A stretch of DNA of 64,000 bases from Eledone cirrhosa (taxonomy: Eukaryota). The stretch lies in the NCBI GenBank assembly GCA_964016885.1, contig OZ024743.1:20832001-20896000 (forward strand), written 5' to 3'. This document shows positions 2,136 to 63,769 of the stretch, piece by piece (the first letter of the stretch is position 1; each line of letters starts with the position of its first letter). Both the position numbers and the translations under genes were made by a program. The notes beneath the pieces were generated by a model, which was not told the origin of the DNA, searched no databases, and saw nothing but the letters and a program-made list of their open reading frames with translations.

Positions 2136-2769
2136 TGCAACCAAGCACATACCCTCCATCAGACACCTACCATACTCTGAACGCCTTGCTTCCCTGGGCA
2201 TGGATTCATTGAAGCTCCGACGTCTGGTAATGGACTTGGTGAATACCCACAAAGTTATTAACCATCTCGCCAACAACAACCCTGAGCACCTTTTTGATCT
2301 CCATGTGTCTAACACACGTGGACATGCCTACAAAATCAGAAAACAGCACAGCTCCCATGACTTTCGTAGACATTTTTTCACGCTCAGAGTTGCTGAAGCA
2401 TGGAACAAACTGCCTGCGTCAGTTGTTAGCTGCCGAGACACTGCATCCTTTAAGACACTCATGCTTCCCAAAATACGCCAAAACTACACCTGATGTACCC
2501 CTTCCATACACATGCACACGTGTGTATCATGACTCATGCACTGTTCATTTTACTGATGTTTGTGCATTGCCCTATGTACTGTACATGCACTTTTTGATGA
2601 GTTGTGGTGCACCTGGGCACTGTACACAATATATCATTATTATTATTGTTGTTGTTATTATATCATGACTCATACACTGTCCATTTTCCTGACATTTGTA
2701 CATTATTCTATGTACTATACATGCACCTTTGATGAGTTGTAGTGCACCTGAGCACTGTACACAATAATT

Positions 2770-2793
<24 letters not shown>
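2136..2793 (+). mobile_element. 5'-truncated CR1/L2-like LINE 3' end; last ~130 bp of the 3'UTR duplicated; (ATT)n tail
   Basis: ORF 2200-2493 ...TRGHAYKIRKQHS...FFTLRVAEAWNKLPASVV is the typical CR1-group ORF2 C-terminus; the same family recurs at 9220, 11605 and 43400. Confidence 0.85.
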
Positions 2794-2829
<36 letters not shown>

Positions 2830-2834
<5 letters not shown>

Positions 2835-3472
2835 AGAATAGAAATGGCTGTGTGGTTGCTATTTAAGGTAAGTTAAAATGCAGTGAGAATACAGAGAAAG
2901 CAAGAACAGGGGGAGGGGGGGGGTCCTCATCAGTTGTCTACTGGGGGTCTAGGATATTTCTACGCTTTAAAGACAAGATATCACTACACACCAGGGCGTC
3001 AATAACTGGATAAGTTATTGGGAAACGAAGGAAGGAGGGAAGGAAAGCAAAGGGGAAGAAAAGAGAAACAGTAACAAAACACCGAAAAACACACAAACCG
3101 AGCAATGTGCGAACAACTATAGGTAGGAAATCCAAGACCACTCGATAATAGAACTTAAGTTCGAGATCGAGTAATCGAGAGAAAAGACACACGTCTGATC
3201 ACCGGAGTTGTAAGTGAAAAGAGAACTGCTAAACGGTCAGACGAGTGGGTGAAAGTGAGAGGGAGAAAAGGAGAGGAAGAAAGTGGGGTAAGAGTAGATA
3301 GGGAGAGAGGGAGGGGTGAGAGTAGAAAGTGGCGAAATAGGTAGGTAGAAGGAGAGAGAAGAATGGTCACAGTGAAAAACATGATGAAATATATGGAGAA
3401 TAGAAATGGTTGTGTAGTTGCTATTTAAGGTAACTTAAAATGCAGTGGGAATATGAAGAAAGCAAGAACAGT
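2830..3472 (-). mobile_element. Unclassified element bounded by ~80 bp direct repeats (2830-2912, 3391-3472), abutting (TA)n, with a truncated hammerhead half-core
   Basis: atggagaatagaaatgg...gcaagaacag occurs twice; CTGATGAG on the - strand at ~2925-2932 has no GAAAC partner. Confidence 0.45.
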
Positions 3473-3722
3473 GGGATGGGGATATATATGTGCGTGTGTG
3501 TGAAAAGTAAATGGCAAAACAACACAGAGCTACAATACAGTACAATGTAGATAGATATATATATATAAATATTAATTTAGTGCTTGATATAGCAGGAAAA
3601 GAGTCTTAGCATTTTAGACATTAGTTTTTCATCAGAAAATACAATGAGATATAGAAGAAGTCATGAACAAAAAATCTTTTGCACGTGTTTGTTTAGTCAG
3701 CCATCAGCCACGATACATATGT

Positions 3723-4060
3723 GGAGGCACATGGCTTAGTGGTTAGAGCATTGGCCTTGCAATCGAAAGGTTGTGAGTTCAATTCTCAGACCGGGTGATG
3801 TGTTGTTTCCTTGAGCAAGACACTTTATTTCACATTGCTCCAGTTTACTCAGCTGTAGAAATGAGATGATAGGGACTGGGGTCCCTATCATTCCACTGCA
3901 AAGTGGTCGTGTAGGTGCCATGGGAAAAAAGCACCCATCACTCACTGTAAATGAGATTGGTGTTAGGAAGGGCATCCAGCTGTAGAAATCAAGCTAGAAT
4001 CAGTTCCCGTCCCACCCTTGCAAGCAGAGAAAAGCGGACGTAAAATGATGATGATGATGA
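3723..4060 (+). mobile_element. tRNA-derived SINE with a CORE-like centre and an RTE-derived 3' tail
   Basis: A box TGGCTTAGTGG, B box GAGTTCAATTC, ccttgagcaagacactt; 3' part matches the RTE family B 3'UTR; (GAT)n tail; second copy at 11721. Confidence 0.88.
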
Positions 4061-4069
4061 ATGAAAATT

Positions 4070-4278
4070 CAATATAGAAAAGGCTTCTACAGGGCTAGAA
4101 TTATTTCATTTGTATCAAATCATCAGGAAAGTCTTGATGATTTCATAGGAATGAAACAGTCTCAGTCCTGTTGAAGCCATTTCTATATTAAATTTTTGTT
4201 GTTGTTCTCACTTTACTTGTGTATTGAGAACCTTGCTTACTGTGTGGTTATCCATAATTTCACTCAGAATCTATATAT
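4070..4278 (+). mobile_element. Degenerate fold-back pLTR fragment with inverted hammerhead motifs plus a one-sided tail
   Basis: Inverted arms ~4071-4130 and ~4135-4190; (T)TGATGA..GAAACAG..CTGT; tail tgtattgagaaccttgcttactgt is homologous to the reverse complement of 56965-57035. Confidence 0.6.
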
Positions 4279-28224: not shown

Positions 28225-31200
28225 TCATCATCATCATCATCATCATCACCGTTTTACGTCCGTTCTTCCACGCTAGCATGGGTTAGACGGGTTGTCCTGT
28301 TGTGTGTAGTGTCTGGTCGGCTGACCATGCCTTGCTCATACAGGAACTGATCTGGCTTGATTTCTACAGCTGGATGCCCTTCCTAACACCAACCTCATTT
28401 ACAGTGAGTGCTGGGTGCTTTTTCGTGGCGCCTACACGTCCGCTTTACAGTGTGGGCTGGGTGCTTTTTTGCCGTGGCACCTCCACGACCACCTTGCGGT
28501 GGGGTGTGTGGGGGCATATTGTTTATATGCTTCAGCATGTACCCATGGGAGGTCGGGTACTCTGTATTACTGCGTGACGCCAGAAGTCACGGTCGTGTGT
28601 CATTGTCTTTGAGAGGTGTAATTGGGTAAGGTCGGCTTTTATCACCTCATCCCAGGTCATCTTGGGTCTCCCCACTCCGCGGTTTCCATCAACTTCTAGT
28701 GCTCTGCACCTTTTTATGCAGCTGTCATCCTTCATACGCATCACATGTCCATACCAGCACAACCGCCTCTCCTGCACACAGCATTTGATTCCTCTTATGC
28801 TCAGTCTCTCTCTCAATTCATTTATGCTTTGTCGTTCACGTATATTACTGTTACACATCCATCGGAGCATGCAGGCTTCGTTTCTCTCTAATCTACGTAA
28901 GTCTTCCACCTTCAGCGCCCAGGTCTTACTACCATGCAACATCGCTGTTCGGATACACGCATCATACAGTCTGCCTTTCATTCTGAGGGAGAAGCCTTTT
29001 GCAGCTAGCAGTGGTAGTAGTTCCCTAAACTTCTTCCATCCCGTTCTTACCCTAGTTATTGTACTTTCTGAGCACCCACCTCCGTTGCTAATTCGGTCAC
29101 CTAGGTAGCAGAAGCTGTCTACTGTTTCTACAGGGCCCTCCCAGAGATTGGTGGTACTTGTTTCCTGTGGCTGTTTGCTTGCTGTTTCAGCACAGCTGCT
29201 GCATGTGAATCCTACATTCTTAATTAAGCTTCCTGAGATCCCGCTACATCTCTTGTGTACCCATTGTTTGCATTTGGGGCAGAGAATGGAGTTCCTACCT
29301 ACACCTTTCCTACATACTGAGCAAGGCCATTTCCCTGAGGGATCTGGGTTCTGTTTTCTCGTCTACTTACAAGGACCTTAGTCTTTGTCATGTTGACTTT
29401 GAGACCCTTTCTCTCTAGTCCCTGCTTCCAGGTTTGGAATTTATTCTCTAGTTCTATCATAGATTCAGCTATGAGTGCGAGGTCATCAGCATACAGGAGT
29501 TCCCATGGGCATCCGGTCTTAAATTCCTCCGTTATTGCCTGCAGGACTATGATGAACAGGAGAGGGCTAAGAACAGAGCCCTGGTGGACCCCAACCTGTA
29601 CGCTAAATTCCTCGCTATACTCATTGCTAATCCTAACTTTGCTGACTGCTCCCCTATACATGGCTTGTACCGCTTTCACAAACCATTCATCTACTCCTAG
29701 TTTTCTAAGAGCCCACCAGATTACAGCACGTGGAACTCTGTCAAAGGCTTTCTCAAGGTCGACAAATGCCAAGTAGAGTGGCTTACTTTTAGCTAGGTAC
29801 TTTTCCTGTAATTGCCTCACAAGGAAGAGGGCATCAGTGGTGCCTCTTCCTGGTACAAACCCAAATTGCTTCTCGTCTATATTCACCCGGTCCCTAATCA
29901 GCTGTGCTATAACTCTTTCTGTTACTTTCATGACCTGGTCCATCAACTTTATACCTCTAGTTTCCTCTATCTAGTGCGTCGCCTTTGCCTTTGTAGCAGT
30001 TGACAATGATGCTACTGCACCAATCTTTTGGTATGGCCCCTTCTAGTATTACCTGGTTAACGATACGTGTGGTTATAGTGTGACCTACAGACCCAGATGC
30101 CTTCAGCATCTCGGCAGCTATACCCGATGGACCGGTTGCCTTCCCCATCTTCATATCTCTGATTGCCTTACTTACTACGCTGCCGCTGACTTGTACTGCT
30201 GGTCCCTCTATAGGGTCTACTTGGGGTAGGGTCTCTTCTTCCCATGCATTCTCCTCATTTAGTAATCTATCATAATGACTCTTCCATGCATCTTTCTTCT
30301 CAGCACTTGTGAGGGCAAGCTCACCTTTATCATTCCGGATACACTTCTCTCCAATGACATCACAACTATCTCTGACACACTGCCTCGCAATCTTGAATAC
30401 CTCCTGTTTCTGGTCCTCACGTTGTAAAACATGCTTGAATTTTCTATCCTCTGCTTCCCTCCTAGCTAAGTATACTTGTCGCCTAGCTTCCCTCTTGGTC
30501 TCTATGTAATGTACCCTGCTCCACCCGTTCTTCCATTCTTTCCATGCCTGTCTCTTGGCCTTGACTGCTTCATCTACCTTATTGTTCCACCACCATGTCA
30601 CTCTCCTCCTGCTTGAGGTCTTACTCCAGCCACAGACCTCGTCCATCGCCTCTAGTAAATTATTTTTTAGGAACTCCCAGTTCTCTTCTACATTAAATGT
30701 CTCTATCTGTTCTTCTTTACTGTCGTAGGCATTGAGTAAAATATCTTTAAATCTGTTACTGGTTGAGGGGACTTTCAGCTTCCAGATCTTTCTTCTCCAG
30801 GTTGGCCTCTGTTTCAGGGCTCGTCTAGTTCTGACCGTGAGGTCGCTGACAACTAAGCTATGTTGGGATGTACATTCCTCACTAGGGAAGGCTTTTGTGT
30901 TTACGACCGTCCATCTGTCACGTCCTCTGATGAGGATAAAATCTAACTGACTAGAGTGCTCCCCTGATCTATAGGTGATCAGGTGGTTGTCGGGTTTTTT
31001 AAAGTTTGTGTTACATATTGACATGTCATTGGCGTCGCAGAATTCTAGAAGTCTGAATCCTTCCTCATTCCTTGTGCCAACTCCATGGCCTCCATGTACT
31101 CTATTGAAGCCGTCGCAGTGTTTACCTATGTGTCCGTTAAAATCTCCTGCGATGATTAGGAAGTCCTTGTCGTCTGTTAGAGCAGTAGTGTGTATTAGGG

Positions 31201-31527
31201 ACTCGTAAAACCTATCCTTAAGTTCGTCTGGCAGCCCCGATTGGGGTGCGTAAGCTGATATTATTGTGGTAATTGTCTTATTCAGGACTAGTCTGAGTTT
31301 AATGATTCTTGCATTTACCCTGTACACTGAGATTACTTTATCTACCCACTTGTCAGCTAATAGTATACCTACACCACCCACCCCATCGTCATTTCCCACC
31401 CAGAAAAATTTGTAGCACTGACTTTTTCCTACAAGGACTCTAGCAGACACTCCTCTCCATCTAGTCTCTTGCACACAGCATACATCAACTTCCTTTCGCT
31501 CTAGCATTTCTACGATTTCTCCTGCTC
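28225..31527 (-). mobile_element. RTE LINE family B, slightly 5'-truncated and frameshifted (APE + RT)
   Basis: ORFs 29957-31507 (CVQETRW, AGDFNGH), 29299-29946 (LEKAFD, QGSVLSP, YADD) and 28532-28981; (GAT)n tail. Confidence 0.95.
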
Positions 31528-33616: not shown

Positions 33617-36600
33617 TCATCATCATCATCATCATCATCATCAACGTTTAACGTCCATGTTCCACGCTTGCATGGGTTTGGACGGGGGTAGTCCCACTTG
33701 AGGCAAGAGTGATTGTCTTGCTCGCATAGGACTGTCTGGCAGGTTTTCTACAGTTGGATGCCCTTCCTAACACCAACCACATTTACAGTGTGGGTCTGGG
33801 AGGTTTTTACCGTGTTGCCTACACGGCCACATTACAGCGTGGACTGTGTGTTTTTTTGTCGTGACACCTACACGATCTCATTTGTTTCGGCCTGGCTGGC
33901 GCGGCACCAACATAACTTTACATAGAACGGGGTGGTGGTGGTGGGACGGGGTGTATTTTGTTAGAGATGCCTACTGGCTGGAGTAGGTTTTACTATATAT
34001 TTAGGTAAGGCGGGTCTTCTCTGTTACTGAGTACCGCCAAAGGTCTCGGTCCAGTGACATTGTCTTGGAGAGGTGTAAGTGTGTGAGGTCGGAGTTTATC
34101 AGCTCGTCCCAGGTTTTTCTAGGTCTGCCTATTCCGTGGCTACCGTCTATCTTTATTGTCCTGCACTTTGTTATACAGCTATCGACTTTCATGCGCATCA
34201 CGTGTCCATACCAACGTAGCCTTCTCTCGAGTAAACAACATCTGATCCCTCTTATCTCTAATTTTTTCCTTAGTTCGTTTATGCTTTGCCGTTCACGTAT
34301 ATTACTGTCACACATCCAGCGGAGCATGCAAGCTTCGTTCCTCTCTAGTCTGCGTATATCCTCTGCACACAATGCCCAGGTCTCACTGCCATGCAACATT
34401 GCTGTTCGTATGCAGGCATCGTACAACCTGCCTTTCATTTTTAGTTGAGAACCCTTTAGCAGCTAATAGTGGTATAAGCTCTCTGAACTTTTTCCAACCA
34501 GTTCTGACTCTAGCTACTGTACTTTCAGAGCACCCTCCCCCACTGCTGATTTTATCGCCCAGGTAACGGAAGCTGTCCACTATTTCTATAGAACCCTCTG
34601 CGCAATTGAAAGAGCTAGTATTTTGTGTGCACTTGCTGCTACTTATTGCACCAGAGCACCGGCCACATGTAAAATCTATGTTCTTAGTTAGCTTACCTGT
34701 GATCCCACTACATCTTTTATGCACCCATACTTTGCATTTAGGACATAAAATGGAGTTTCTACCTACGCCTTTCCTACACACCGAGCACGACCATTTCCCA
34801 GAAGGGACCGCCGCCTTGTTTTCTTTCCTACAAACTAGAACTTTAGTCTTAGCCCGGTTAATTTTAAGTCCTTTTGACTCTAGGCCGTGCTTCCATATTT
34901 GGAATTTCTTCTCTAGCTCGGCCATTGATTCCGCTATGAGTGTCAGGTCGTCTGCGTATAGGAGTTCCCATGGGCAGCCGGTCTTGAACTCCTCTGTTAT
35001 AGCCTGAAGGGCAATAATAAATAGTAGGGGGCTGAGAACAGAGCCCTGATGGACGCCAACTTTTACGCTAAACTCTTCACTATATTCGTTGTTAATTCTA
35101 ACCTTGCTGACTGTTTCTTTATTCATGGCTTGTATAGCCCTCACAAGCCATTCGTCAACGCCTAGTTTTCTAAGAGCCCACCAGATAATGGAGCGGGGGA
35201 CTCTGTCGAAGGCTTTCTCCAAGTCGACAAAAGCTAAGTAGAGGGGTTTACCTTTAGCTAGGTACTTCTCCTGTAGTTGTCGTACTATGAAAAGAGCGTC
35301 TGTGGTACTTTTGCCTGACACAAACCCGAACTGCATTTCAACTAGGTCAATTCTCTCTCTGATTAGTTGCGCTATTACTTTTTCCGTGACCTTCATGACC
35401 TGGTCGATTAATTTAATGCCTCTATAGTTACTCCTATCTAGGGCGTCTCCTTTACCCTTATAACAGTTAACGATGATGCTGCTATGCCAGTCCTTCGGAA
35501 CAACCCCATTCTGTACGACTTGGTTAACTATGCGGGTGACCATGGTGTGTTCCACCGTGCCAGATGCCTTCAGCATCTCAGCAACTATTTCCGAAGGCCC
35601 AGCCGCCTTACCCGTCTTCATATCCTTGATTGCCTTACTTATTATACTCCCCTCGACTAACACTGCTGGTCCCTCTATTGGGTCGATATGGGGGAGACTG
35701 TCTTTCTCCCATTTATTCTCCTCATTTAGTAGCCTTTCATAGTGACACTTCCAAGCTACCTTCTTATCAGCGTCGGTGATGGCAAGTGTGCCATCATCGT
35801 TTAGTACACACTTCTCCCCGACAATATCACGGTTTTCCTTGACGCATTGCCTAGCAATCCTGAACACCTCACGTTTTTGGTCCTCGCATTGTAGAACATG
35901 CTTGAACTTTCTTTCCTCAGCTTCCCTTCTTGCTAAGTACACTTGTCTCCTAGCTTCCCTCCTGGCCACTTGATAGTCTTCTCTACTTCCCCCATCCCGC
36001 CATACTTTCCAAGCCTGCTTTTTGGCCTTAATTGACCCCTCCACTTTACTGTTCCACCACCATGTTACTCTCCTCCTGCCTACAGGCCTGCTCCAGCCAC
36101 AGACTTCGTCTGTCGCCATCAGCAGGTTTGCTTTCAGAAATTCCCACTGTCCCTCTATATTGTCCGACTGTAAATGTTCTTCCTTACTGTCGAAAGCATC
36201 AAGTAATATGCTTTGAAATTTATTTCTGGCTGTGGGGTCCTTTAGCTTCCATATTTTTCTCCTGAGGATAGTCCTCTTTTGCTGTCGAGTATGTCTCGTC
36301 CTGACTATGAGGTCGCTAATTATCAGTCTATGTTGGGAGGTGCATTCTTCATGGGGGAGGGATTTAGTGTTTACGACAGACACTCTGTCACGTCTTCTGG
36401 TAAGGATATAATCTACCTGGCTTGTGTGTTCCCCGGATCTATAGGTGATCAGGTGATTGTCACGTTTTTTGAAGTTAGTGTTACAGATAGTTAGGTTATT
36501 TGCATCACAGAATTCCAGGATTCTGGAGCCTTCCTCATTTCTAGTACCAAACCCATAGCCTCCATGGATTTCGTCGTAGCCGTCACAATGTTGTCCAACG

Positions 36601-37305
36601 TGACCATTTAGGTCGCCTGCAATAATTATATAGTCACTGTCGGATATTTGGGAGGTAGTTAGCATCAGTGTCTCATAGAATCTGTCTTTTATAGTGCCGG
36701 GCAGTCCGGATTGGGGTGCGTACGCAGATATTACTGTCACCGTAGTTCTATTGAGGACAAGTCGTATTTTAATTATTCTGTCGTTCACTCTATTTACGTC
36801 TATTATCTTATCTGCCCACTTTTCTGCTACCATGATTCCTACTCCACCCAGCCCATCGTCGTTTCCCACCCAGAAAAGCTTATAACATCGTTTTTTACCC
36901 TCAATGAATCTAGCAGACCCACCCCTCCACCTGGTCTCTTGAATACAACATACATCGACCTCCTTACGTTCAAGCATTTCTACAACCTCGTTAGCGCGAC
37001 CCTTTAGGGTGCCTACATTTATGGTACCAACTCTGAAGTTTTGGATTGCGTTTGGAGGGTGGGGGCGGTGGGGGGCGGGGGGAGATGGGGTTATGTTAGC
37101 CATCCGCGGACGAAACAAAGAGGAGTGCTTGCATTCTCGTCCACGAGGTGAATTTGACTTTAACTTTGGCATTTTCGCTGAGCGTCCAGATTTTTCTCTC
37201 CCTTCCACTCTCCAGGATTCCGCAGTCCATCCATCCATCCATCATATATCGAAGGCAACCGGGCAAGCGAAAGTATAGGCCTCTGGCTTATGATTGGTCC
37301 GCGTA
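33617..37305 (-). mobile_element. Near-full-length RTE LINE family A
   Basis: Single APE-RT ORF, 3'UTR and (GAT)n tail; 5' boundary approximate. Confidence 0.95.
34001..37238 (-). pseudogene. RTE APE-endonuclease/reverse transcriptase polyprotein with one frameshift near 34440
   Basis: 951 aa ORF (GTINVGT, CIQETRW, GDLN, LEKAFD, QGSVLSP, YADD, C4HC3 finger) plus the 145 aa C-terminal ORF 34001-34438. Confidence 0.93.
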
Positions 37306-39013: not shown

Positions 39014-42000
39014 CATCATCATCATCATCACCGTTTTACGTCCGTTCTTCCACGCTAGCATGGGTTAGACGGGTTGTCCTGTTGTGGGCAGTGTCTGGTC
39101 GGCTGACCATGCCTTGCTCATACAGGAACTGATCTGGCTTGATTTCTACAGCTGGATGCCCTTCCTAACACCAACCTCATTTACAGTGAGTGCTGGGTGC
39201 TTTTTCGTGGCGCCTACACGTCCACTTTACAGTGTGGGCTGGGTGCTTTTTTGCCGTGGCACCTCCACGACCACCTTGCGGTGGGGGGGGGGGCATATTG
39301 TTTATATGCTTCAGCATGTACCCATGGGAGGTCGGGTACCCTGTATAACTGCATGACGCCAGAAGTCACGGTCGTGTGTCATTGACTTTGAGAGGTGTAG
39401 TTGGGTAAGGTCGGCTTTTATCACCTCATCCCTAGTCATCTTGGGTCTCCCCACTCCGCGGTTTCCATCAACTTCTAGTGCTCTGCACCTTTTTATGCAG
39501 CTGTCATCCTTCATACGCATCACATGTCCATACCAGCGTAACCGCCTCTCCTGCACGCAGCATTTGATTCCTCTTATGCTCAGTCTCTCTCTCAATTCCT
39601 TTATGCTTTGTCGTTCACGTATATTACTGTTACACATCCATCGGAGCATGCAGACTTCGTTTCTCTCTAATCTACGTAAGTCTTCCACCTTCAGCGCCCA
39701 GGTCTCACTACCATGCAACATCGCTGTTCGGATACACGCATCATACAGTCTGCCTTTCATTCTGAGGGAGAAGCCTTTTGCAGCTAGCAGTGGTAGTAGT
39801 TCCCTAAACTTCTTCCATCCCGTTCTTACCCTAGTTATTGTACTTTCTGAGCACCCACCTCCGTTGCTAATTCGGTCACCTAGGTAGCAGAAGCTGTCTA
39901 CTGTTTCTACAGGGCCCTCCCAGAGATTGGTGGTACTTGTTTCCTGTGGCTGTTTGCTTGCTGTTTCAGCACAGCTGCTGCATGTGAATCCTACATTCTT
40001 AATTAAGCTTCCTGAGATCCCGCTACATCTCTTGTGTACCCATTGTTTGCATTTGGGGCAGAGAATGGAGTTCCTACCTACACCTTTCCTACATACTGAG
40101 CAAGGCCATTTCCCTGAGGGGATCTGGGTTCTGTTTTCTCGTCTACTTATAAGGACCTTAGTCTTTGTCATGTTGACTTTGAGGCCCTTTCTCTCTAGTC
40201 CCTGCTTCCAGGTTTGGAATTTATTCTCTAGTTCTACCATAGATTCAGCTATGAGTGCGAGGTCATCAGCATACAGGAGTTCCCATGGGCATCCGGTCTT
40301 AAACTCCTCCGTTATTGCCTGCAGGACTATGATGAACAGGAGAGGGCTAAGAACAGAGCCCTGGTGGACCCCAACCTGTACGCTAAATTCCTCGCTATAC
40401 TCATTGCCAATCCTAACTTTGCTGACTGCTCCCCTATACATGGCTTGTACCGCTTTCACAAGCCATTCATCTACTCCTAGTTTTCTAAGAGCCCACCAGA
40501 TTACTGCACGTGGAACTCTGTCAAAGGCTTTCTCAAGGTCGACAAATGCCAAGTAGAGTGGCTTACTTTTAGCTAGGTACTTTTCCTGTAATTGCCTCAC
40601 AAGGAAGAGGGCATCAGTGGTGCCTTTCCCTGGTACAAACCCAAATTGCATCTCGTCTATATTCACCCGGTCCCTAATCAGCTGTGCTATAACTCTTTCT
40701 GTTACTTTCATGACCTGGTCCATCAACTTATACCTCTATAGTTTCCTCTATCTAGTGCATCGCCTTTACCTTTGTAGCAGTTGACAATGATGCTACTGCA
40801 CCAATCTTTTGGTATGGCCCCCTCTAGTATTACCTGGTTAACGATACGTGTGGTTATAGTGTGACCTACAGACCCAGATGCCTTCAGCATCTCGGCAGCT
40901 ATACCCGATGGACCGGTTGCCTTCCCTATCTTCATATCTCTGATTGCCTTACTTACTACGCTGCCGCTGACTTGTACTGCTGGTCCCTCTATAGGGTCTA
41001 CGTGGGGTAGGGTCTCTTCTTCCCATGCATTCTCCTCATTTAGTAATCTATCATAATGACTCTTCCATGCATCTTTCTTCTCAGCACTTGTGAGGGCAAG
41101 CTCACCTTTATCATTCCGGATACACTTCTCTCCAATGACATCACAACTATCTCTGACACACTGCCTCGCAATCTTGAATACCTCCTGTTTCTGGTCCTCA
41201 CGTTGTAAAACATGCTTGAATTTTCTATCCTCTGCTTCCCTCCTAGCTAAGTATACTTGTCGCCTAGCTTCCCTCTTGGTCTCTATGTAATGTACCCTGC
41301 TCCCCCCGTTCTTCCATTCTTTCCATGCCTGTCTCTTGGCCTTGACTGCTTCATCTACCTTATTGTTCCACCACCAAGTCACTCTCCTCCTGCTTGAGGT
41401 CTTACTCCAGCCACAAACCTCATCCGTCGCCTCTAGTAAGTTATTTTTTAGGAACTCCCAGTTCTCCTCTACGTTAAATGTCTCTATCTGTTCTTCTTTA
41501 CTGTTGTAGGCGTTGAGTAAAATATCTTTAAATCTGCTACTGGTTGAGGGGACTTTCAGCTTCCAGATTTTTCTTCTCCAGGTTGGCCTCTGTTTCAGGG
41601 CTCGTCTAGTTCTGACCGTGAGGTCGCTGACAACTAAGCTATGTTGGGATGTACATTCCTCACTAGGGAAGGCTTTTGTGTTTACGACCGTCCATCTGTC
41701 ACGTCCTCTGATGAGGATAAAATCTAACTGACTAGAGTGCTCCCCTGATCTATAGGTGATCAGGTGGTTGTCGGGTTTTTTAAAGTTTGTGTTACATATC
41801 GACATGTCATTGGCGTCGCAGAATTCTAGAAGTCTGAATCCTTCCTCATTCCTTGTGCCAACTCCATGGCCTCCATGTACTCTATTGAAGCCGTCGCAGT
41901 GTTTACCTACGTGTCCGTTAAAATCTCCTGCAATGATTAGGAAGTCCTTGTCGTCTGTTAGAGCAGTAGTGTGTATTAGGGACTCGTAAAACCTATCCTT

Positions 42001-42630
42001 AAGTTCGTCTGGCAGCCCCGATTGGGGTGCGTAAGCTGATATTATTGTGGTAATTGTCTTATTCAGGACTAGTCTGAGTTTAATGATTCTTGCATTTACC
42101 CTGTACACTGAGATTACTTTATCTACCCACTTGTCAGCTAATAGTATACCTACACCACCCATCCCATCGTCATTTCCCACCCAGAAAAATTTGTAGCACT
42201 GGCTTTTTCCTACAAGGACTCTAGCAGACCCTCCTCTCCATCTAGTCTCTTGCACACAGCATACATCAACTTCCTTTCGCTCTAGCATTTCTACGATTTC
42301 TCCTGCTCTTCCTTTCATTGAGCCTACATTGATGGTACCAACTCGGAGTTTTGGGCATTTGTCGACACTCGTAGGGGAGGGTCTCTGGGTTGGCGCTTCA
42401 CGTGGGTGCTTGGTAGCTCGCAGATTCATATTTTATCTATTGATTCAGAGTTGCTCGTGTATTCCCAGCTCATCCATCCATAACGGTGGGAAAATTGAGG
42501 GCTAGAAGAACAGTGGTGGTGGGGTAATGGCAGGGTGTGTTGGGATGCGCCAGAGGAGGAGAGAGTTAGTTAGGCAGGTAGTAGCAGCAGCAGTGGAAAT
42601 GGCATGCTAGGTTTGATTGGTCGAATAGAC
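39014..42630 (-). mobile_element. Near-full-length RTE LINE family B
   Basis: ORFs 40723-42429 and 39311-40726; (GAT)n tail; very similar to the 28225 copy. Confidence 0.95.
39311..42429 (-). pseudogene. RTE APE-RT polyprotein broken by a single 1-bp deletion at ~40728
   Basis: catcaacttatacc here versus catcaactttatacc in the 29941 copy. Confidence 0.92.
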
Positions 42631-51217: not shown

Positions 51218-54200
51218 ATCATCATCATCATCTTCATCATCCTTTAACGTCCATGTTCCACGCTTGCATGGGTTTGGACGGGAGTTTTCCCACTGTCTGG
51301 CGGGTTTTCTACAGTTGGATGCCCTTCCTAACACCAACCACATTTACAGTGTGGTGCTGGGACGTTTTTACCGTGTTGCCTACACGGCCACATTACAGCG
51401 TGGACTGTCTGGCGGGTTTTCTACAGCTGGATGCCCTTCCTAACACCAACCACATTTACAGTGTGGGACTGGGAGGTTTTTACCGTGTTGCCTACACGGT
51501 CATATTACAGCGTGGACTGTGTGTTTTTTTGTCGTGACACCTACACGATCTCATTTGTTTCGGCCTGGATTTTGTGGCACCAACATAACTTTACATTGAA
51601 AGGGGTGGTGTGGATGGGGGGGGGGGGGTATTTTGTTAGAGATGCCTACTGACTGTAGTAGGTTTTACTTTGTATTTAGGTAAGGCGGGTCTTCTCTATT
51701 ACTGAGTACTGCCAAAGGTCTCAGTCCAGTGACATTGTCTTGGAGAGGTGTAAGTGTGTGAGGTCGGAATTTATCAGCTCGTCCCAGGTTTTTCTGGGTC
51801 TGCCTACTCCGTGGCTACCGTCTATCTTTATTGCCCTACACTTTGCTATACAGCTGTCGTCTTTCATACGCATCACGTGACCATACCAACGTAGCCTTCT
51901 CTCGAGTAAACAACATCTGATCCCTCTTATTTCTAATTTTTTCCTTAGTTCGTTTATGCTTTGCCGTTCGCGTATATTACTATTACACATCCAGCGGAGC
52001 ATGCAAGCTTCATTCCTCTCTAGTCTGCGTATATCCTCTGCACACAATGCCCAGGTCTCACTGCCATGCAACATTGCTGTTCGTATGCAGGCATCATACA
52101 ACCTGCCTTTCATTTTTAGGGAGAACCCTTTAGCGGCTAATAGTGGTATAAGCTCTCTGAACTTTTTCCATCCAGTTCTGACTCTAGCTACTGTACTTTC
52201 AGAGCACCCTCCCCCAATGCTGATTTTTTCACCCAGGTAACGGAAGCTGTCCACTATTTCTATAGAACCCTCTGCGCAGTTGAAAGAGCTAGTATTTTGT
52301 GGGCACTTGCTGCTACTTATTGCACCAGAGCACCGGCCACATGTAAAATCTGTGTTCTTAGTTAGCTTACCTGTGATCCCACATCTTTTATGCACCCATA
52401 CTTTGCATTTGGGACATAAAATGGAGTTTCTACCTACGCCTTTCCTACACACTGAGCATGGCCATTTCCCGGAAGGGACCGGCGCCTTATTTTCTTTCCT
52501 ACAAACAAAAACTTTAGTCTTAGCCAGGTTAATTTTAAGGCCTTTTGATTCTAGGTCGTGCTTCCATGTTTGGAATTTCTTCTCTAGCTTGGCCATTGAT
52601 TCAGCTATGAGCGTTAGGTCATCTGCGTATAGGAGTTCCCATGGGCAGCCGGTCTTGAACTCCTCTGTTATAACCTGAAGAGCAATAATAAGTAGTAGGG
52701 GGCTAAGAACAGAGCCCTGATGGACACCAACTTTTACGCTAAACTCTTCACTATATTCGTTATTAATTCTAACCTTGCACACTGTTTCTTTATACATGGC
52801 TTGTATAGCTCTCACAAGCCATTCGTCAACACCTTGTTTTCTAAGAGCCCACCAGATGATGGAACGGGGGACTCTGTCGAAGGCTTTCTCCAAGTCAACA
52901 AAAGCTAAGTATAGGGGTTTACTTTTAGCTAGGTACTTCTCCTGTAGTTGTCGTACAATGAATAAGCGTCTGTGGTACTTTTGCCTGACACAAACCTGAA
53001 CTGCATTTCATCTAGATCGATTCTCTCTCTGATTAGTTGCACTATTACTTTTTCCGTGACTTTCATGACCTGCTCGATTAATTTAATGTCTCTATAGTTA
53101 CTCCTATCTAGGGCGTCTCCTTTACCCTTGTAACAGTTAATGATGATGCTGCTACGCCAGTCCTTCGGAACAACCCCATTCTGTATGACTTGGTTTACTA
53201 TCCGGGTGACCATGGTGTGTCCCACCGTTCCAGAGGCCTTCAGTATCTCAGCAACTATTTCCGAAGGCCCAGCAGCCTTACCCGTCTTCATATCTTTGAT
53301 TGCCTTACTTATTATACTACCTTCAACTAACACTGCTGGTCCCTCTATTGGATCGATCTGGGGGAGACTATCCTTCTCCCATTTATTCTCCTCATTTAGT
53401 AGCCTCTCGTAGTGACACTTCCAAGCGACCTTCTTATCAGCGTCAGTGATGGCGAGTACGCCATCATCATTTAGTACACACTTCTCCCCAACAATATCAC
53501 GGTTTTCCTTGACACATTGCCTAGCAATCCTGAACACCTCACGTTTTTGGTCCTCGCGTTGTAGAACATGCTTGAACTTTCTTTCCTCTGCTTCCCTTCT
53601 TGCGAAGTACACTTGTCTCCTAGCTTCCCTCCTGGCCACTTGATAGTCTTCTCTACTTCCCCCATCCCGCCATACTTTCCAAGCCTGCTTTTTGGCTATG
53701 AGGTCGCTAATTATCAGTCTATGTTGGGAGGTGCATTCTTCATGGGGGAGGGATTTAGTGTTTACAACAGTCACTCTGTCACGTCTTCTGGTAAGGATAT
53801 AATCTACCTGGCTGGTATGTTCCCCTGATCTGTAGGTGATCAAGTGATTGTCTCGTTTTTTGAAGTTAGTGTTACAGATTGTTAGGTTATTTGCATCACA
53901 GAATTCCAGGATTCTGGAGCCTTCCTCATTTCTAGTACCAAACCCATAGCCTCCATGGATTTCTTCATAGCCGTCACAATGTTGTCCAACGTGACCATTT
54001 AGGTCGCCAGCAATAATTATATAGTCACTGTCGGTTATTTGGGAGGTAGTGAGCATCAGTGTCTCATAGAAAGTGTTTTTTATAGCGCCAGGCAGTCCGG
54101 ATTGGGGCGCGTACGCAGATATTATCGTCACAGTAGTTCTATTTAGAACAAGTCTTGTTTTAATTATTCTGTCGTTCACTCTATTTACGTCTATTATCTT

Positions 54201-54417
54201 ATCCACCCATTTTTCTGCTAACATGATTCCTAACCCACTCAGCCCATTGTCATTTCCCACCCAGAAAAGCTTATAGCATCGTTTTTTACCCACAATGAAT
54301 CTAGCAGACCCGCCCCTCCACCTGGTCTCTTGGATGCAGCAGACATCAACCTCCTTATGTTCAAGCATTTCTACAACCTCGTTTGAGCGGCCTTTTAAGG
54401 TCACTACATTCATGGTA
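51218..54417 (-). mobile_element. RTE family A, 5'-truncated, with an in-frame internal deletion and frameshifts
   Basis: ORFs 52929-54413 and 51721-52893; ISDLI joined to AKKQAW at ~53697. Confidence 0.95.
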
Positions 54418-54629
54418 CATATATATATATATATATTATATATTATATATATATTATATATATATATATTATATATATTATATATATATATATTATATAT
54501 ATATTATATATATGTTATATATATATATATATTATATATATATATATATTATATATATATTATATATATTATATATATATATATATTATATATATATTAT
54601 ATATATATATATATTATATATATTATATA

Positions 54630-54697
<68 letters not shown>

Positions 54698-54778
54698 TTA
54701 TATATTATATATATATATTATATATATATTATATATATTATATATATATTATGTATATTATATATATATATATATATT
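54418..54778. repeat. (TA)n tract
   Basis: Seen directly. Confidence 0.95.
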
Positions 54779-54780
54779 AT

Positions 54781-55864
54781 CATCATCATCATCATCATCA
54801 CCGTTTTACGTCCGTTCTTCCACGCTAGCATGGGTTAGACGGGTTGTCCTGTTGTGGGCAGTGTCTGGTCGGCTGACCATGCCTTGCTCATACAGGAACT
54901 GATCTGGCTTGATTTCTACAGCTGGATGCCCTTCCTAACACCAACCTCATTTACAGTGAGTGCTGGGTGCTTTTTCGTGGCGCCTACACGTCCACTTTAC
55001 AGTGTGGGCTGGGTGCTTTTTTGCCGTGGCACCTCCACGACCACCTTGCGGTGGGGGGGGGGGGGGGCATATTGTTTATATGCTTCAGCATGTACCCATG
55101 GGAGGTCGGGTACCCTGTATTACTGCGTGACGCCAGAAGTCACGGTCGTGTGTCATTGACTTTGAGAGGTGTAGTTGGGTAAGGTCGGCTTTTATCACCT
55201 CATCCCAAGTCATCTTGGGTCTCCCCACTCCGCGGTTTCCATCAACTTCTAGTGCTCTGCACCTTTTTATGCAGCTGTCATCCTTCATACGCATCACATG
55301 TCCATACCAGCGTAACCGCCTCTCCTGCACGCAGCATTTGATTCCTCTTATGCTCAGTCTCTCTCTCAATTCCTTTATGCTTTGTCGTTCACGTATATTA
55401 CTGTTACACATCCATCGGAGCATGCAGGCTGCGTTTCTCTCTAATCTACGTAAGTCTTCCACCTTCAGCGCCCAGGTCTCACTACCATGCAACATCGCTG
55501 TTCGGATACACGCATCATACAGTCTGCCTTTCATTCTGAGGGAGAAGCCTTTTGCAGCTAGCAGTGGTAGTAGTTCCCTAAACTTCTTCCATCCCGTTCT
55601 TACCCTAGTTATTGTACTTTCTGAGCACCCACCTCCGTTGCTAATTCGGTCACCTAGGTAGCAGAAGCTGTCTACTGTTTCTACAGGGCCCTCCCAGAGA
55701 TTGGTGGTACTTGTTTCCTGTGGCTGTTTGCTTGCTGTTTCAGCACAGCTGCTGCATGTGAATCCTACATTCTTAATTAAGCTTCCTGAGATCCCGCTAC
55801 ATCTCTTGTGTACCCATTGTTTGCATTTGGGGCAGAGAATGGAGTTCCTACCTACACCTTTCCT
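54781..55864 (-). mobile_element. 5'-truncated RTE family B
   Basis: ORF 55085-55534; both ends in (TA)n. Confidence 0.93.
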
Positions 55865-55985
55865 ATTATATATATATTATATATATTATATATATTATAT
55901 ATGTATTATATATATTATATATATATTATATATATTATATATATATTATATATATTATATATATATTATATATATATATATATTA

Positions 55986-56961: not shown

Positions 56962-57133
56962 CATTATTCCGGGTTGAGTCGGAGGTAACGACAGTAAGTA
57001 AGGTACTCAATACATTGCAGAGTATAAAAGTTTTAATATAAGATGAGATTCTTTAGAAATCATCAGGAATCTCTGATTCCTGATGATTTCTGAAGAATGA
57101 AACAGTTCTAGTCCTGTAGAATCTCATCTATAT
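56962..57133 (-). mobile_element. Fold-back pLTR fragment, same family as 4070-4278
   Basis: Inverted arms around 57071-57074; tail on the left; flanked by TA. Confidence 0.7.
57075..57123 (+). ncRNA. Canonical minimal type I hammerhead
   Basis: gattc CTGATGA tttc-tgaa-gaat GAAACAG ttctagtc CTGTA gaatc. Confidence 0.78.
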
Positions 57134-57219
57134 ATATTATATATATATATATTATATATATATATAATATATATAATATATATATATATAATATATATAT
57201 ATGTATAATATATATATAT

Positions 57220-57364
<145 letters not shown>

Positions 57365-57374
57365 AGATATGTAT

Positions 57375-57405
<31 letters not shown>

Positions 57406-57435
57406 GTTTATATATATATATATATATATATGAAA

Positions 57436-60278
57436 TATATGAAATATAAGAATCAAAGAACTGTTCAAAACATTATTGTGCTTACAGCTGTTTCCTCCAA
57501 ACCGAGGTTTGGATTCTTCGGAGCAATTTATTAATGCATGGACAGTTATATGACCTCCTTTTCAGCCGAGAGACATACCAATACATATTCAAACATTGAT
57601 ACATATTCAAACATTGTGGGTCAACATTCATTACAAAATTTAGAGTGGCAGTACACACTTCGAGATTACATTTATATTAATAGGTACAATCAAAAATCAA
57701 AGATATAGGTTAAAGTACAACATGAAGATAAGTGGTTATATAGTGCAAATGTTATATGTGTGGCACGCATGTGCGTCTTGTTTATATAGTGTGGCAGAGA
57801 GATATGTGTGGTAGAGGCACTTAGGTAGGTAAATAAGAGTGTTAGGTTGGTAGATCTGGTGGCAAAGTCTTTATATGATTGATGTAGTCTGTGTGTGGAG
57901 AAATATTATAAACATTAAAGATAGTGCAAGCATTAAAAGTGTTATAAGTATTGGAGATGCACAACGCAGGGATGTCACGTAATTCATGTACTTCGGCATT
58001 TTCATGGTCAAGGGAGTGTATATTTCGATTATATGCCTTTCACATAATCCACGACAATCCAGTTAGAGATCGTAGTCTGGTGTTCCTTAGTTCGATACAG
58101 GAGGTTGTTACGTTTCGAGAGACGCCATTGAATACCGGAAGTGTGTGTGTGGCTAAGGGGAGTTAATGCATGCGGGGAGGTAACTCTGGGGTTTCTATAT
58201 CTAGCCATTAAAATGTGTCCCAATATGGACCCTAAATTCTATGGTGAGGTGCACCTTCCAAGAGAGACTTTTAAAGCATAAAGTGTACTAACTATAGAGT
58301 AGTTTAACTAAATTATGCTGAAGGAGATCATATTATTATTAAGGTGGATTAACCCATCTTAAGGTGCTACAAATGGAAATTATAGATGATGAGCGAGGAT
58401 TCTAAATTAATGATCTCTGTGGTTGTAGTCTGCTCATATGACCAGGCGCGGTGATTGCAGGATTGCTTCAGGACCCAATGATCTCTGGTAAGATCTGGGT
58501 CATCGCTTGCTACATTGGATGTCGAAAGATAATCGTCCCCAGGCAGGCCAAAGGTCAATCCCCAGTCCTCGCGACCCCTCTCTGACCGTCAGATCATCCA
58601 TATACGTACAACCCGCACGGCAGTTGCATTGCATTCACTCACTGCGCTCAGCAGCCCGGTCCTACTGGTCAACAGCGCTACTCGATTAAATCATTTTACA
58701 TCTGTCTAAGGAAGGTGTTTCCTCTGCCCAACACCATCCAACCGATCGATTCATGCTCAAATTACCCTTAGAGCGGTGTAGTGCCGTCCAGGCGGGTGGA
58801 TGTTGTCACACCTGCCGTAGAGGTATAAATGGGTATTTTCCCTGCGAAGGGTTCCAATGGAACCCTTCGCAGGGAAAATACCCATTTATACCTCTACGGC
58901 AGGTGTGACAACATCCACCCGCCTGGACGGCACTACACCGCTCTAAGGGTAATTTGAGCATGAATCGATCGGTTGGATGGTGTTGGGCAGAGGAAACACC
59001 TTCCTTAGACAGATGTAAAATGATTTAATCGAGTAGCGCTGTTGACCAGTAGGACCGGGCTGCTGAGCGCAGTGAGTGAATGCAATGCAACTGCCGTGCG
59101 GGTTGTACGTATATGGATGATCTGACGGTCAGAGAGGGGTCGCGAGGACTGGGGATTGACCTTTGGCCTGCCTGGGGACGATTATCTTTCGACATCCAAT
59201 GTAGCAAGCGATGACCCAGATCTTACCAGAGATCATTGGGTCCTGAAGCAATCCTGCAATCACCGCGCCTGGTCATATGAGCAGACTACAACCACAGAGA
59301 TCATTAATTTAGAATCCTCGCTCATCATCTATAATTTCCATTTGTAGCACCTTAAGATGGGTTAATCCACCTTAATAATAATATGATCTCCTTCAGCATA
59401 ATTTAGTTAAACTACTCTATAGTTAGTACACTTTATGCTTTAAAAGTCTCTCTTGGAAGGTGCACCTCACCATAGAATTTAGGGTCCATATTGGGACACA
59501 TTTTAATGGCTAGATATAGAAACCCCAGAGTTACCTCCCCGCATGCATTAACTCCCCTTAGCCACACACACACTTCCGGTATTCAATGGCGTCTCTCGAA
59601 ACGTAACAACCTCCTGTATCGAACTAAGGAACACCAGACTACGATCTCTAACTGGATTGTCGTGGATTATGTGAAAGGCATATAATCGAAATATACACTC
59701 CCTTGACCATGAAAATGCCGAAGTACATGAATTACGTGACATCCCTGCGTTGTGCATCTCCAATACTTATAACACTTTTAATGCTTGCACTATCTTTAAT
59801 GTTTATAATATTTCTCCACACACAGACTACATCAATCATATAAAGACTTTGCCACCAGATCTACCAACCTAACACTCTTATTTACCTACCTAAGTGCCTC
59901 TACCACACATATCTCTCTGCCACACTATATAAACAAGACGCACATGCGTGCCACACATATAACATTTGCACTATATAACCACTTATCTTCATGTTGTACT
60001 TTAACCTATATCTTTGATTTTTGATTGTACCTATTAATATAAATGTAATCTCGAAGTGTGTACTGCCACTCTAAATTTTGTAATGAATGTTGACCCACAA
60101 TGTTTGAATATGTATCAATGTTTGAATATGTATTGGTATGTCTCTCGGCTGAAAAGGAGGTCATATAACTGTCCATGCATTAATAAATTGCTCCGAAGAA
60201 TCCAAACCTCGGTTTGGAGGAAACAGCTGTAAGCACAATAATGTTTTGAACAGTTCTTTGATTCTTATATTTCATATA
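57436..60278. repeat. Long palindrome: two 1421 bp arms with a 1 nt spacer at 58857
   Basis: Centre ggttcca-a-tggaacc; four ORF pairs give identical translations at mirrored coordinates (sum 117714); the ends match as reverse complements. Confidence 0.97.
60189..60235 (+). ncRNA. Minimal type I hammerhead, U4C variant; mirror copy at 57479-57525 on -
   Basis: tgct CCGAAGA a-tccaaacc-tc-ggtttgga-g GAAAC agct GTA agca. Confidence 0.62.
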
Positions 60279-60492
60279 ACTGCTCTGTAAATCATCTGAT
60301 GTTTTTACATTGAGCTACTTAACTTACTGGTAATAAGGTAGTAATACATTACTGCCTACCACTATTTAGGGTGTGTGTAAAATACTTACAACTGCTTAAG
60401 GTTTTGTGTTTACATAACCATAAATAGTATAACTAATACTATATATATATATATATATTATATATATATAAGATATGTATTATATATATATT

Positions 60493-60528
<36 letters not shown>

Positions 60529-60660
60529 ATACATATATTATATATATATTATATATATATATTATATATATATATACATATATTATATATATATTATATA
60601 TATATATTAAATATATATATATTATATATATATATATATTATATATATATATATATATTC

Positions 60661-61697: not shown

Positions 61698-63769
61698 TTT
61701 CCCTTATTTATAGTTATTTACAAAAGGCTTGATGAAATTTTTGGAGATCCCCAAAAATTGGCATATCCTTTTGGAAAAATGAATCTTCTTTTGTTTGGTG
61801 ATTTGATGCAATTGCCACCTGTAAATGAAAAACCAGTATTTTCTAGAATTTCATCATATGATGCCAAAAGAACAGAAAATGGCATTAGTGGGCATTCATT
61901 GTGGAAATACTTTCAATATGATGAGCTAACCATTAATATGAGATAAAAAGAAGACAAAGACAACTATGTTGATGTTTTGGGAACAATTAGGATTGGTTCC
62001 CCATCAGACTCTGATATTAGCATTCTTCAAAAAAGATGCCTATTTCCTGATAGAAAAGCACCTGTTGAAGAAATTGCTAAAAAATTGATTGAATTGTATT
62101 CTATTCCTGAATTAAAATTTGTATGCATTTTACCTTTGAATGAAGCTGTTGATGAGTTGAATAATGAAATGATTAAAATATGCAACATAAATGCAGTGAA
62201 ACTTGCTGCAAAAGATTCTGGTATGAGACAAGTAAATGGAAGAAAAAAGAAAAATGTTGAAAAAGGCAAAGACAAGAAAACTTCTGATACTGCTGGACTA
62301 GAAACTTTGCTAAATGTTGGAATTGGAGCAAGAGTAATGTTGTAACGAAACATTGATGTAGATCAAGGCTTATGCAATGGTGTTATTGGAACAGTTATTA
62401 AATTAATTGGGAACGGAAGCAATGTTGACAAAGTTTTGGTGTCTTTTGATACCAAAAAGGACAAACCCATTTCCATTGGAAGAGTTCAAGCAGACTATGA
62501 AATTTCTCCTGGTGTTTTTGTCACCAGAACACAATTTCCATTGTCTCTTGCTTACTCTATAACAATTCACAAATCACAAGGAATTTCTGTGGATGGAATA
62601 ATTGCTGATTTAGGAAATCAGATATTTTCTGATGGTCAAGAGCCAGAAAATTTTGCAATGTGTATCTATGTGACTTTGATCCAAGATCATTGATCATGGT
62701 TGACAAATCTGCATGGGAAGAGTACAACAAACTACGGGATAGTACTGGAAGAGCAGATTTGCCTCCATTGCCACCTTGCAGGAAAAAGCATCCTTGCATG
62801 GCAAATGCTTCTAGCATCCCCAAGAAAAGAACTAAAAGACTTAATTTGGAAGAAAATTCAAACCAACCTGCCAAAAAGAAGAAAAGAAATGAAAACAGCC
62901 AAACTTTAATCACTAAACATCAATTGATCAACCAAAGAAATGCTTGTTTTGCAAATTCAGTTGTGCAATCACTGAATCAATTGCCTGAATTTGTAGAGTA
63001 TTTGCATAATTTTAACAACATGAATGGAGTACATCAAGAATTAAGCAATATCATTTTTAATAATCTTAATAATGTCTCTAACTTAAGAAGAATAATTGGA
63101 GGAAGAATTTATGATGGAAATCAGCAATGTGCTCATGAATTTTGGAAAGAACTCTCTCTACATTTGGACTTGGTATTTAGAGAAAAACTTCAATTTATTC
63201 AAACTGATCATACTAGATGCATCCGATTGCATCAAACAAATTGCCAAGCTCTAAATAACAATGTTTGCAATTGTAATTCAAGACCTGGATGTGGTATAGA
63301 ATCTGAACTTCCATTTCAAATAAAAGAGGATTTGATATTAAATCCTATTAATGGCACACAACAATTTAAATCTCTACTTTCACCAACAAATACTTTGACT
63401 AAATACTGTGATACTTGTTCTGAAAATACTGAGCATCAAATAACTTCAAGAATTGAATTTACTAACGATTTCAAATATCTTGTCATCTCAAGTAGTAGAT
63501 TTTTGATTAATAATGAAGGAGAACAAAGAATTAATTGTGATATTATGAACTTTAGCTAAAAAAAGCAGCAAATATATGGCACAAATTTCACATTAAAAAC
63601 TGCTATTCTTCATGAAGGAGTATCATCTACGGCAGGCCATTATACTTGTCTGGTAAAAAGTGGTGCTGAAAATTGGGATGAAATTAGTGACAACATTACC
63701 AAAAAAAGGCACAAAAAAGTTCCTCCTAAGTTACCTAATGTGGTTGTATTGTTTATGGAAAAAATTTAG
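61698..63769 (+). pseudogene. Helitron/Helentron-like PIF1 helicase C-terminal half fused to a USP (peptidase C19) domain
   Basis: PFGKMNLLLFGDLMQLPPV, LTINMR*, ARVML*RNID..GLCNG, RTQFPLSLAYSITIHKSQG; then LINQRNACFANSVVQSL, QQCAHEF, HEGVSSTAGHYTC, WDEISD; stops at 61944, 62343 and 63557; frameshift/deletion near 62650. Confidence 0.82.

Follow-up and report, generated by a model that had tools for sequence, protein, structure and literature searches.

A perfect palindrome with 1.4-kb arms in the Eledone cirrhosa genome: a probable single, very recent insertion of a Penelope-like retroelement of Hydra type

A palindrome with kilobase arms, one unpaired base at its centre, a hammerhead-like motif near each outer end and no reading frame raises the question of what kind of element it is and how it was made. 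We addressed this question at positions 57436-60442 of a 64,000-nucleotide stretch of contig OZ024743.1 (hereafter the window; Table 1). The first-pass annotation had described an apparently perfect palindrome with a 1-nt loop, and an exact reverse-complement test confirmed it, with 0 mismatches between the 1421-bp arms. The tail was found on the right arm only, as had been noted, and is followed directly by (TA)n. The absence of an intact open reading frame also held, as no frame of 150 codons or more lies inside the arms. The hammerhead, placed by that annotation about 45 nt from each arm end, corresponds to a hammerhead-like motif with its predicted cut 47 nt from the arm end and a mirror copy in the other arm.

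Table 1. Features of the palindrome and its flanks, in window positions
Feature	Position	Strand	Remarks
Left (TA)n target tract	57126..57426	.	contains a 12-mer at 57364
9-nt stutter of the left arm's first bases	57427..57435	+	just outside the short end
Left arm	57436..58856	-	inverted 5'-truncated family 3' UTR, unit 4035 down to 2615
Mirror of hammerhead-like motif	57476..57526	-	basis: arm identity
Centre base, single unpaired A	58857..58857	.	between the two arms
Right arm	58858..60278	+	direct copy, unit 2615-4035, non-coding
Variant in both arms	58921 (mirror 58793)	+	no other exact 24-mer match in the assembly
Second variant in both arms	59152 (mirror 58562)	+	otherwise present only in an old copy of 95.7% identity
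Hammerhead-like motif, type I	60188..60238	+	read from the sequence
Tail, 164 bp	60279..60442	+	unit 4036-4199, ends at the family's fixed long end
Right (TA)n target tract	60443..60660	.	same 12-mer at 60470, direct, not mirrored

The palindrome and its parent family

With TA runs masked, no second match to the arms was found elsewhere in the 64-kb window. In the 3.0-Gb assembly, all 40 scored places (of 1948 candidates) matched the right arm plus tail at 99-100%. From 20 fetched loci we defined a 4199-bp unit. This unit is also found arranged in head-to-tail tandems, and in sibling copies an 832-codon frame is open at unit positions 4-2499. The Penelope-like origin suggested earlier was supported, the arms being the 3' UTR of a 4.2-kb Penelope-like family, and the outer end of the left arm is the fixed short end of that family. 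The window insertion holds unit 2615-4199 in direct and 4035-2615 in inverted orientation, so it consists of 3' UTR only; this accounts for the missing frame, and no separate non-autonomous element is needed. The closest copy, L021, still has its frame open and shows 2 differences in 1585 bases, in agreement with the very recent formation proposed in the first-pass annotation. These results indicate that a single, very recent insertion of a Penelope-like retroelement of Hydra type gave the palindrome, which consists of two 3' UTR copies, each truncated at its 5' end and placed head to head. The locus itself is dead, having no coding part, while the family is young, with about 1100 insertions, among which partial tandems, inverted 5'-truncated copies and a one-sided tail recur.

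At 58857 an intact element would have G (antisense) or C (sense), so the centre A is likely untemplated. The stutter beside the left arm is likely slipped re-priming at the short end. The 12-mer of the left TA tract recurs once in the right tract and possibly marks a long target duplication, although a target-site duplication cannot be fixed inside (TA)n.

The family protein has 800 relatives at E<=0.001, some of them from molluscs; a Pfam search with it returned no reverse transcriptase (RT) or GIY-YIG match. RT and endonuclease motifs were recognised as YRDD at 367, VIY at 710 and YVG at 725. Additionally, the protein carries RWR at 51 (K changed to R relative to RWK), DKT at 136 (in place of DKG), the CxCX5C linker CNCRANRTC at 691, CNLC as CxxC at 789 and CQH as CxH at 817. 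CCHH is absent, with one cysteine only inside the GIY-YIG core as read by eye, and (TA)n is the insertion target at all fetched ends. RWK, DKT, the CxCX5C linker, CxxC plus CxH and (TA)n are the marks given for the Hydra clade, which includes an octopus member (PMC8557442). From these motifs and from Hydra-1_Ajap in the supplement of that paper, the family is assigned to the Hydra clade at the level of sequence motifs. An assignment to Nematis was dropped on the clade definitions and supplement available from the same source.

As described in PMC8557442, the Hydra clade has the same single frame with a C-terminal endonuclease, RW(K/R), DKT, CxCX5C, CxxC, CxH and (TA)n. Its members also carry a hammerhead with a palindromic helix III near the 3' end, which the hammerhead-like motif of the present family resembles in layout. 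The present unit is larger, at 4199 bp with a 1.7-kb 3' UTR, compared with 2507 bp for Hydra-1_Obim and less than 3 kb for most described families, the latter being a general tendency of the clade and not a strict criterion. The core of the hammerhead-like motif also differs, with C at position 4 and a sequence unlike that given there for Hydra-1_oBim.

The 3' UTR (L027:5574-7272, unit 2500-4199) is far longer than implied for other Hydra families, and its first part is richer in G+C (47-51%). It is possibly captured DNA. Single arms longer than the 4199-bp unit were seen at L049, L059, L137, L247, L249 and L250, and at L049 private variants are common to units on both arms of one insertion; both observations are compatible with a transcript of several units, or with rolling-circle copying of a circle that the ribozyme would have made. 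At least half of the sampled family words were present in 7 runs from four organisms (among runs X1-X8), and family contigs from five organisms are mostly 95-100% alike. Judged by these sequences, the family would be common to close species, or transferred. Besides this family, the genome contains at least four Penelope-like families that bear GIY-YIG and have long open frames (L142-L183; up to 1096 codons among those listed).

The first-pass annotation had also reported weak GIY-YIG-like traces in the arms. Both peptides are present in the translation, but the arm scored no better than shuffled DNA against three Penelope protein profiles built from unnamed relatives of the family protein, with 48, 80 and 69 of 200 shuffles scoring at least as high. 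A Pfam search of the three forward frames of the arm gave 0 families, and tblastn of 376 proteins returned only copies of the arm and chance-level matches. A decayed GIY-YIG remnant in the arms was therefore not supported. A relic of a second Penelope frame in the 3' UTR was rejected, since the motif-like peptides seen by eye were supported by neither Pfam, tblastn nor the profiles. A heavily frameshifted relic from a clade outside those covered could escape detection.

Outer ends, inner ends and the predicted ribozyme cut

We counted the outer ends of the family genome-wide with exact patterns. Short ends, at which unit 4035 adjoins TA, numbered 1121, and long ends, at which unit 4199 does so, numbered 1048; a further 1208 sites were read-through. 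The two fixed ends stand 164 nt apart in the unit. Among the first 100 short and first 100 long sites listed on contig C1, 46 facing short-long pairs and 0 long-long pairs were found; 2 apparent short-short pairs in the same sample were long-ended insertions with a mutated read-through site. A second arm of at least 22 bp was absent from 10 of 20 fetched unpaired long ends and from 11 of 17 fetched unpaired short ends. The first bases were stuttered at 21 of 85 listed short ends (counted by eye), and long ends also stutter at some loci (L025, L091). Stutters of this type, present at both outer ends, are typical of re-priming, and we read both outer ends as priming sites.

Inner ends were sampled from 100 loci fetched on C1, comprising 63 paired insertions, 17 of 37 unpaired short ends and 20 of 50 unpaired long ends. 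A head-to-head junction was present in 78 of them, and after the complex locus L087 was dropped, 77 insertions were analysed. The results showed that inner ends vary from insertion to insertion, and yet in 16 of the 77 insertions the two ends were no more than 15 nt apart, compared with 1.39 expected (20000 permutations, maximum 7). Identical inner ends were found in 7 of the 77 (0.18 expected from permutations). The shared arms were shorter than 500 bp in 14 of the 16 matched-end insertions. About a fifth of inverted insertions are thus near-perfect palindromes, and the window palindrome is a long case of a common product. The earlier remark that it shares the design of the small fold-backs was supported. 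Unit 2615, the inner end in the window, was considered as a preferred stop and rejected, with no enrichment among the 77 systematic junctions.

When 22 more loci chosen for length were added to the C1 sample, 25 other insertions had shared arms longer than 1 kb, and the centre was matched in two of them (L094 and L100). Both lack 0.7-0.9 kb of one arm beside the centre, through either later one-sided deletion or incomplete fold-back at insertion. The window palindrome is the only intact one among these 26 insertions, and further searches for other kilobase perfect palindromes of the family found none.

Several inner junctions carry additional sequence. Short snap-back inserts occur at L043, L074, L094 and L100, and the matched junctions of L093, L097 and L078 sit on native hairpins. 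Short templated inserts, direct or inverted, were seen at L046, L061, L069, L074, L103, L133 and L249; they resemble what we take to be marks of polymerase-theta end-joining.

The hammerhead-like motif has a type I layout with a 7-bp helix II and a palindromic helix III, a layout described for Penelope-like elements (PMC4209133). Its core reads CCGAAGA instead of CUGANGA, and C at position 4 was present in 132 of 137 sampled motif copies; C at this position is reported to lower hammerhead activity without abolishing it (PMC3088659). An Rfam search gave no hammerhead match to the motif, and local folds there were not beyond chance (z -1.2 to -1.7, + strand). A second structured RNA near the centre was also sought and rejected, with Rfam at E<=5 over the whole unit returning 2 chance-level matches.

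The predicted cut lies between 60231 and 60232, that is, unit 3988/3989. We searched for arms ending exactly at this cut and followed by three non-native bases. The search gave 13 matches; one was a 7-nt internal deletion, leaving 12 arm ends at 10 loci, compared with 1 match (counted uninspected) at a single control position 9 nt upstream. At 3 of the 10 loci the cut is where both arms end, to within 1 nt, and the arms are separated by AT, ATATAT or ATG. These miniature palindromes are free of hairpins, and the A/T at their centres is untemplated. They show how two copies that stop at one RNA 5' end would give a palindrome that has no spacer and a few untemplated A/T bases in the middle, which is also the structure of the centre in the window. 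The pile-up of genomic ends at the predicted cut is suggestive of cleavage by the hammerhead-like motif.

Formation of the palindrome and alternative explanations

We propose, with moderate confidence, that a (TA)n target was cut and that each of its strands primed reverse transcription on the same RNA, both copies running to one 5' end. The proposal draws on the pairing of unlike fixed outer ends and the stutters there, on the excess of coinciding inner ends and on the pile-up of inner ends at the predicted ribozyme cut. In this process, the GIY-YIG domain would cut both strands of the (TA)n target, one target 3' end would prime at unit 4199 and the other at 4035, and both cDNAs would stop at a broken RNA 5' end at unit 2615. 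An untemplated A would then be added to one cDNA, and either a template jump or end-joining by the host would connect the two cDNA ends before fill-in. In work with a purified Poseidon protein, both strands of the target were cut and extended, with synthesis beginning at two internal positions of the RNA that delimit the tail (PMC11167929). The R2 RT has been shown to add untemplated bases and to jump between templates (PMC8857657). The RNA end shared at 2615 is an assumption, since 2615 is not a recurrent end in the systematic sample, and one RNA copied twice is indistinguishable from two RNAs with the same end. Having no spacer, the locus is predicted to be unstable, with eventual loss of part of one arm.

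A broader version of this proposal is held more tentatively and falls somewhat short of an even chance. It would combine asymmetric double priming with strand-assigned start sites, a germline cut by the hammerhead, despite its non-standard core, that sets the template 5' end, and routine, short-lived perfect palindromes of kilobase size that are eroded one-sidedly. If true, asymmetric double priming would replace the antisense self-priming model for inverted ends, and the cut-site ends would be the first genomic footprint of ribozyme cleavage in the Penelope life cycle.

Snap-back synthesis, in which a cDNA folds back at the centre and is copied outward until it meets a short cDNA from the other target end, is the main alternative and the less likely origin; the inner part of one arm would then be a copy of the other arm. 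In its favour, a native 2-4-bp micro-hairpin (TTCC-AGA-GGGA, antisense strand) lies exactly at the centre, and matched junctions on native hairpins and short fold-back inserts occur at other loci, as described above. Within the assembly, the 58921 variant is exclusive to the two arms, and both shared variants lie less than 300 nt from the centre. Self-priming has also been proposed for junction palindromes (PMC3846280) and for L1-linked inverted duplications (bioRxiv 10.1101/2024.12.14.628481). However, the 3-nt loop is AAT (or ATT) instead of the native AGA, so that two extra changes are required, and the cut-site palindromes are hairpin-free with untemplated A/T. The two variants common to both arms imply a single-molecule or single-source origin, and no source copy with both was present in the assembly, but they do not separate the models, because unmatched insertions share private variants as often as matched ones (40 in 43957 bp and 3 in 4511 bp, respectively).

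The same two variants, rare or absent elsewhere, could speak for an older inverted insertion whose arms owe their perfection, whether retained or acquired later, to gene conversion or cruciform repair. We regard this as very improbable, and the ongoing homogenisation raised in the first-pass annotation was not borne out. Arm-to-arm differences amounted to 12 in 4511 bp (0.27%) in matched-end insertions and 120 in 43957 bp (0.27%) in other insertions, 23 of the latter being end noise in L106. Four unmatched insertions (L029, L033, L080 and L091) had 0 arm differences over 905-1693 bp. With both classes at 0.27% and these four insertions free of differences, youth is enough to explain arm identity. 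The window copy is also among the youngest, at 2 differences from L021, and L094 and L100, which are older, long and matched at the centre, are instead missing 0.7-0.9 kb of one arm.

The possibility that the palindrome is a separately mobile, non-autonomous derivative, moving as a 3-kb palindromic fold-back unit, is hardly credible. The locus does have both terminal signals and no coding part, but its centre junction occurs only once in the assembly, inner ends change from insertion to insertion, and the arms are the 3' UTR of an autonomous 4.2-kb family. A comparison with retrozymes likewise found a head-to-head arrangement around a single-copy centre, not tandem hammerhead monomers.

A sequencing or assembly artefact, whether a fold-back read, a lost spacer or polishing that equalised the arms, is improbable. 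In its favour, about 0.6% of genomic reads from nanopore sequencing are fold-backs (PMC12870357), the palindrome is the sole intact one among the 26 long-armed insertions, and it has no independent read support (8 of 24 runs compared, all from other samples). None of these 8 runs, compared with one unit or with the right arm, showed a strand switch at the centre. In the 4 runs compared with the right arm, common alleles were found where covered and no private alleles; private alleles are expected to be absent there, because the insertion is young and the runs come from other individuals. Against an artefact, the mirror ends at the two biological ends of the family and does not run into the flanks, where the 12-mer stands in direct and not mirrored orientation. 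Moreover, non-majority alleles, which majority polishing would erase, are kept in the arms. Opposite-strand family joints occur in raw short reads (4 with 2 starts; 2 in a second set), and the short end is present in a contig from another run, stopping at 60278 and passing into (TA)n.

Relation to known systems and window neighbours

The inverted copy, one-sided tail and junction palindromes have already been published for Penelope-like elements (PMC8557442, PMC3846280). The inverted 5'-truncated pseudo-LTR insertions in these two sources, as far as their available text goes, likewise have a head-to-head inverted copy with a one-sided tail, partial tandems, junction palindromes and microsatellite targets. 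They differ in that their tails measure 30-40 bp, compared with 164 bp here, and in that their junction palindromes span 18-38 bp, whereas here whole 1.4-kb arms are paired with one base between. The window copy also lacks the coding part, unlike those insertions. The inverted ends were explained by antisense self-priming in PMC3846280, and their origin was called open in PMC8557442.

Poseidon PAc of Anolis shows, in vitro, the same extension of both strands, two internal starts that define the tail and an AT-rich target (PMC11167929). In PAc the two strands did not differ in start site, whereas here every resolved insertion combines a short with a long end. No RNA read of PAc was found to stop at the ribozyme cut (PMC11167929), whereas cDNA ends of the present family pile up at the predicted cut. 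L1 twin priming resembles the proposed double priming in that both target ends prime and the cDNAs are joined head to head (bioRxiv 10.1101/2024.12.14.628481). In L1, however, the internal site used by the second primer varies, and each cDNA represents its own part of the RNA. In the present family that site would be constant and close to the 3' end, which makes the two cDNAs overlap and produces long inverted repeats.

In the open-access literature searched, we found no account of Penelope-like elements that describes twin priming, start sites assigned to strands or ends at the ribozyme cut. Nor did these papers, bioRxiv 10.64898/2026.07.22.740005 among them, report that unlike ends pair strictly, that inner ends match more often than expected or that ends accumulate at the cut. 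The window locus is a dead insertion of an ordinary kind, though a large, perfect and fresh one, and its value is as a lead to the family. With about a thousand young insertions, open-frame copies, two exact starts and a pile-up at the cut, the question of inverted ends becomes testable by census and in vitro. The family predicts a steady supply of spacer-less palindromes; long ones are fragile in model organisms (PMC7999016). A read-through transcript of the window locus, if made, would form a 1.4-kb duplex, which would also lock up the hammerhead.

Other features lie near the palindrome in the window. A small fold-back that belongs to a different family (57040-57128) lies next to the left TA tract and contains a CUGAUGA...GAAA hammerhead-like core and an imperfect palindrome at 57048-57098. 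On the right, a 308-codon open frame (62633-63559, + strand) has a weak match to ubiquitin C-terminal hydrolase (PF00443, E 0.00036, below the curated cut-off) and is either a host exon or mobile cargo. Two young LINE families occupy the - strand at 28232-31527, 33729-37044, 39014-42354 and 51402-55865, with endonuclease, RT and a PHD-like finger. Identity reaches 98% within a family and is 75% between the two, and a related frame in L030 matched RVT_1, Exo_endo_phos and PHD.
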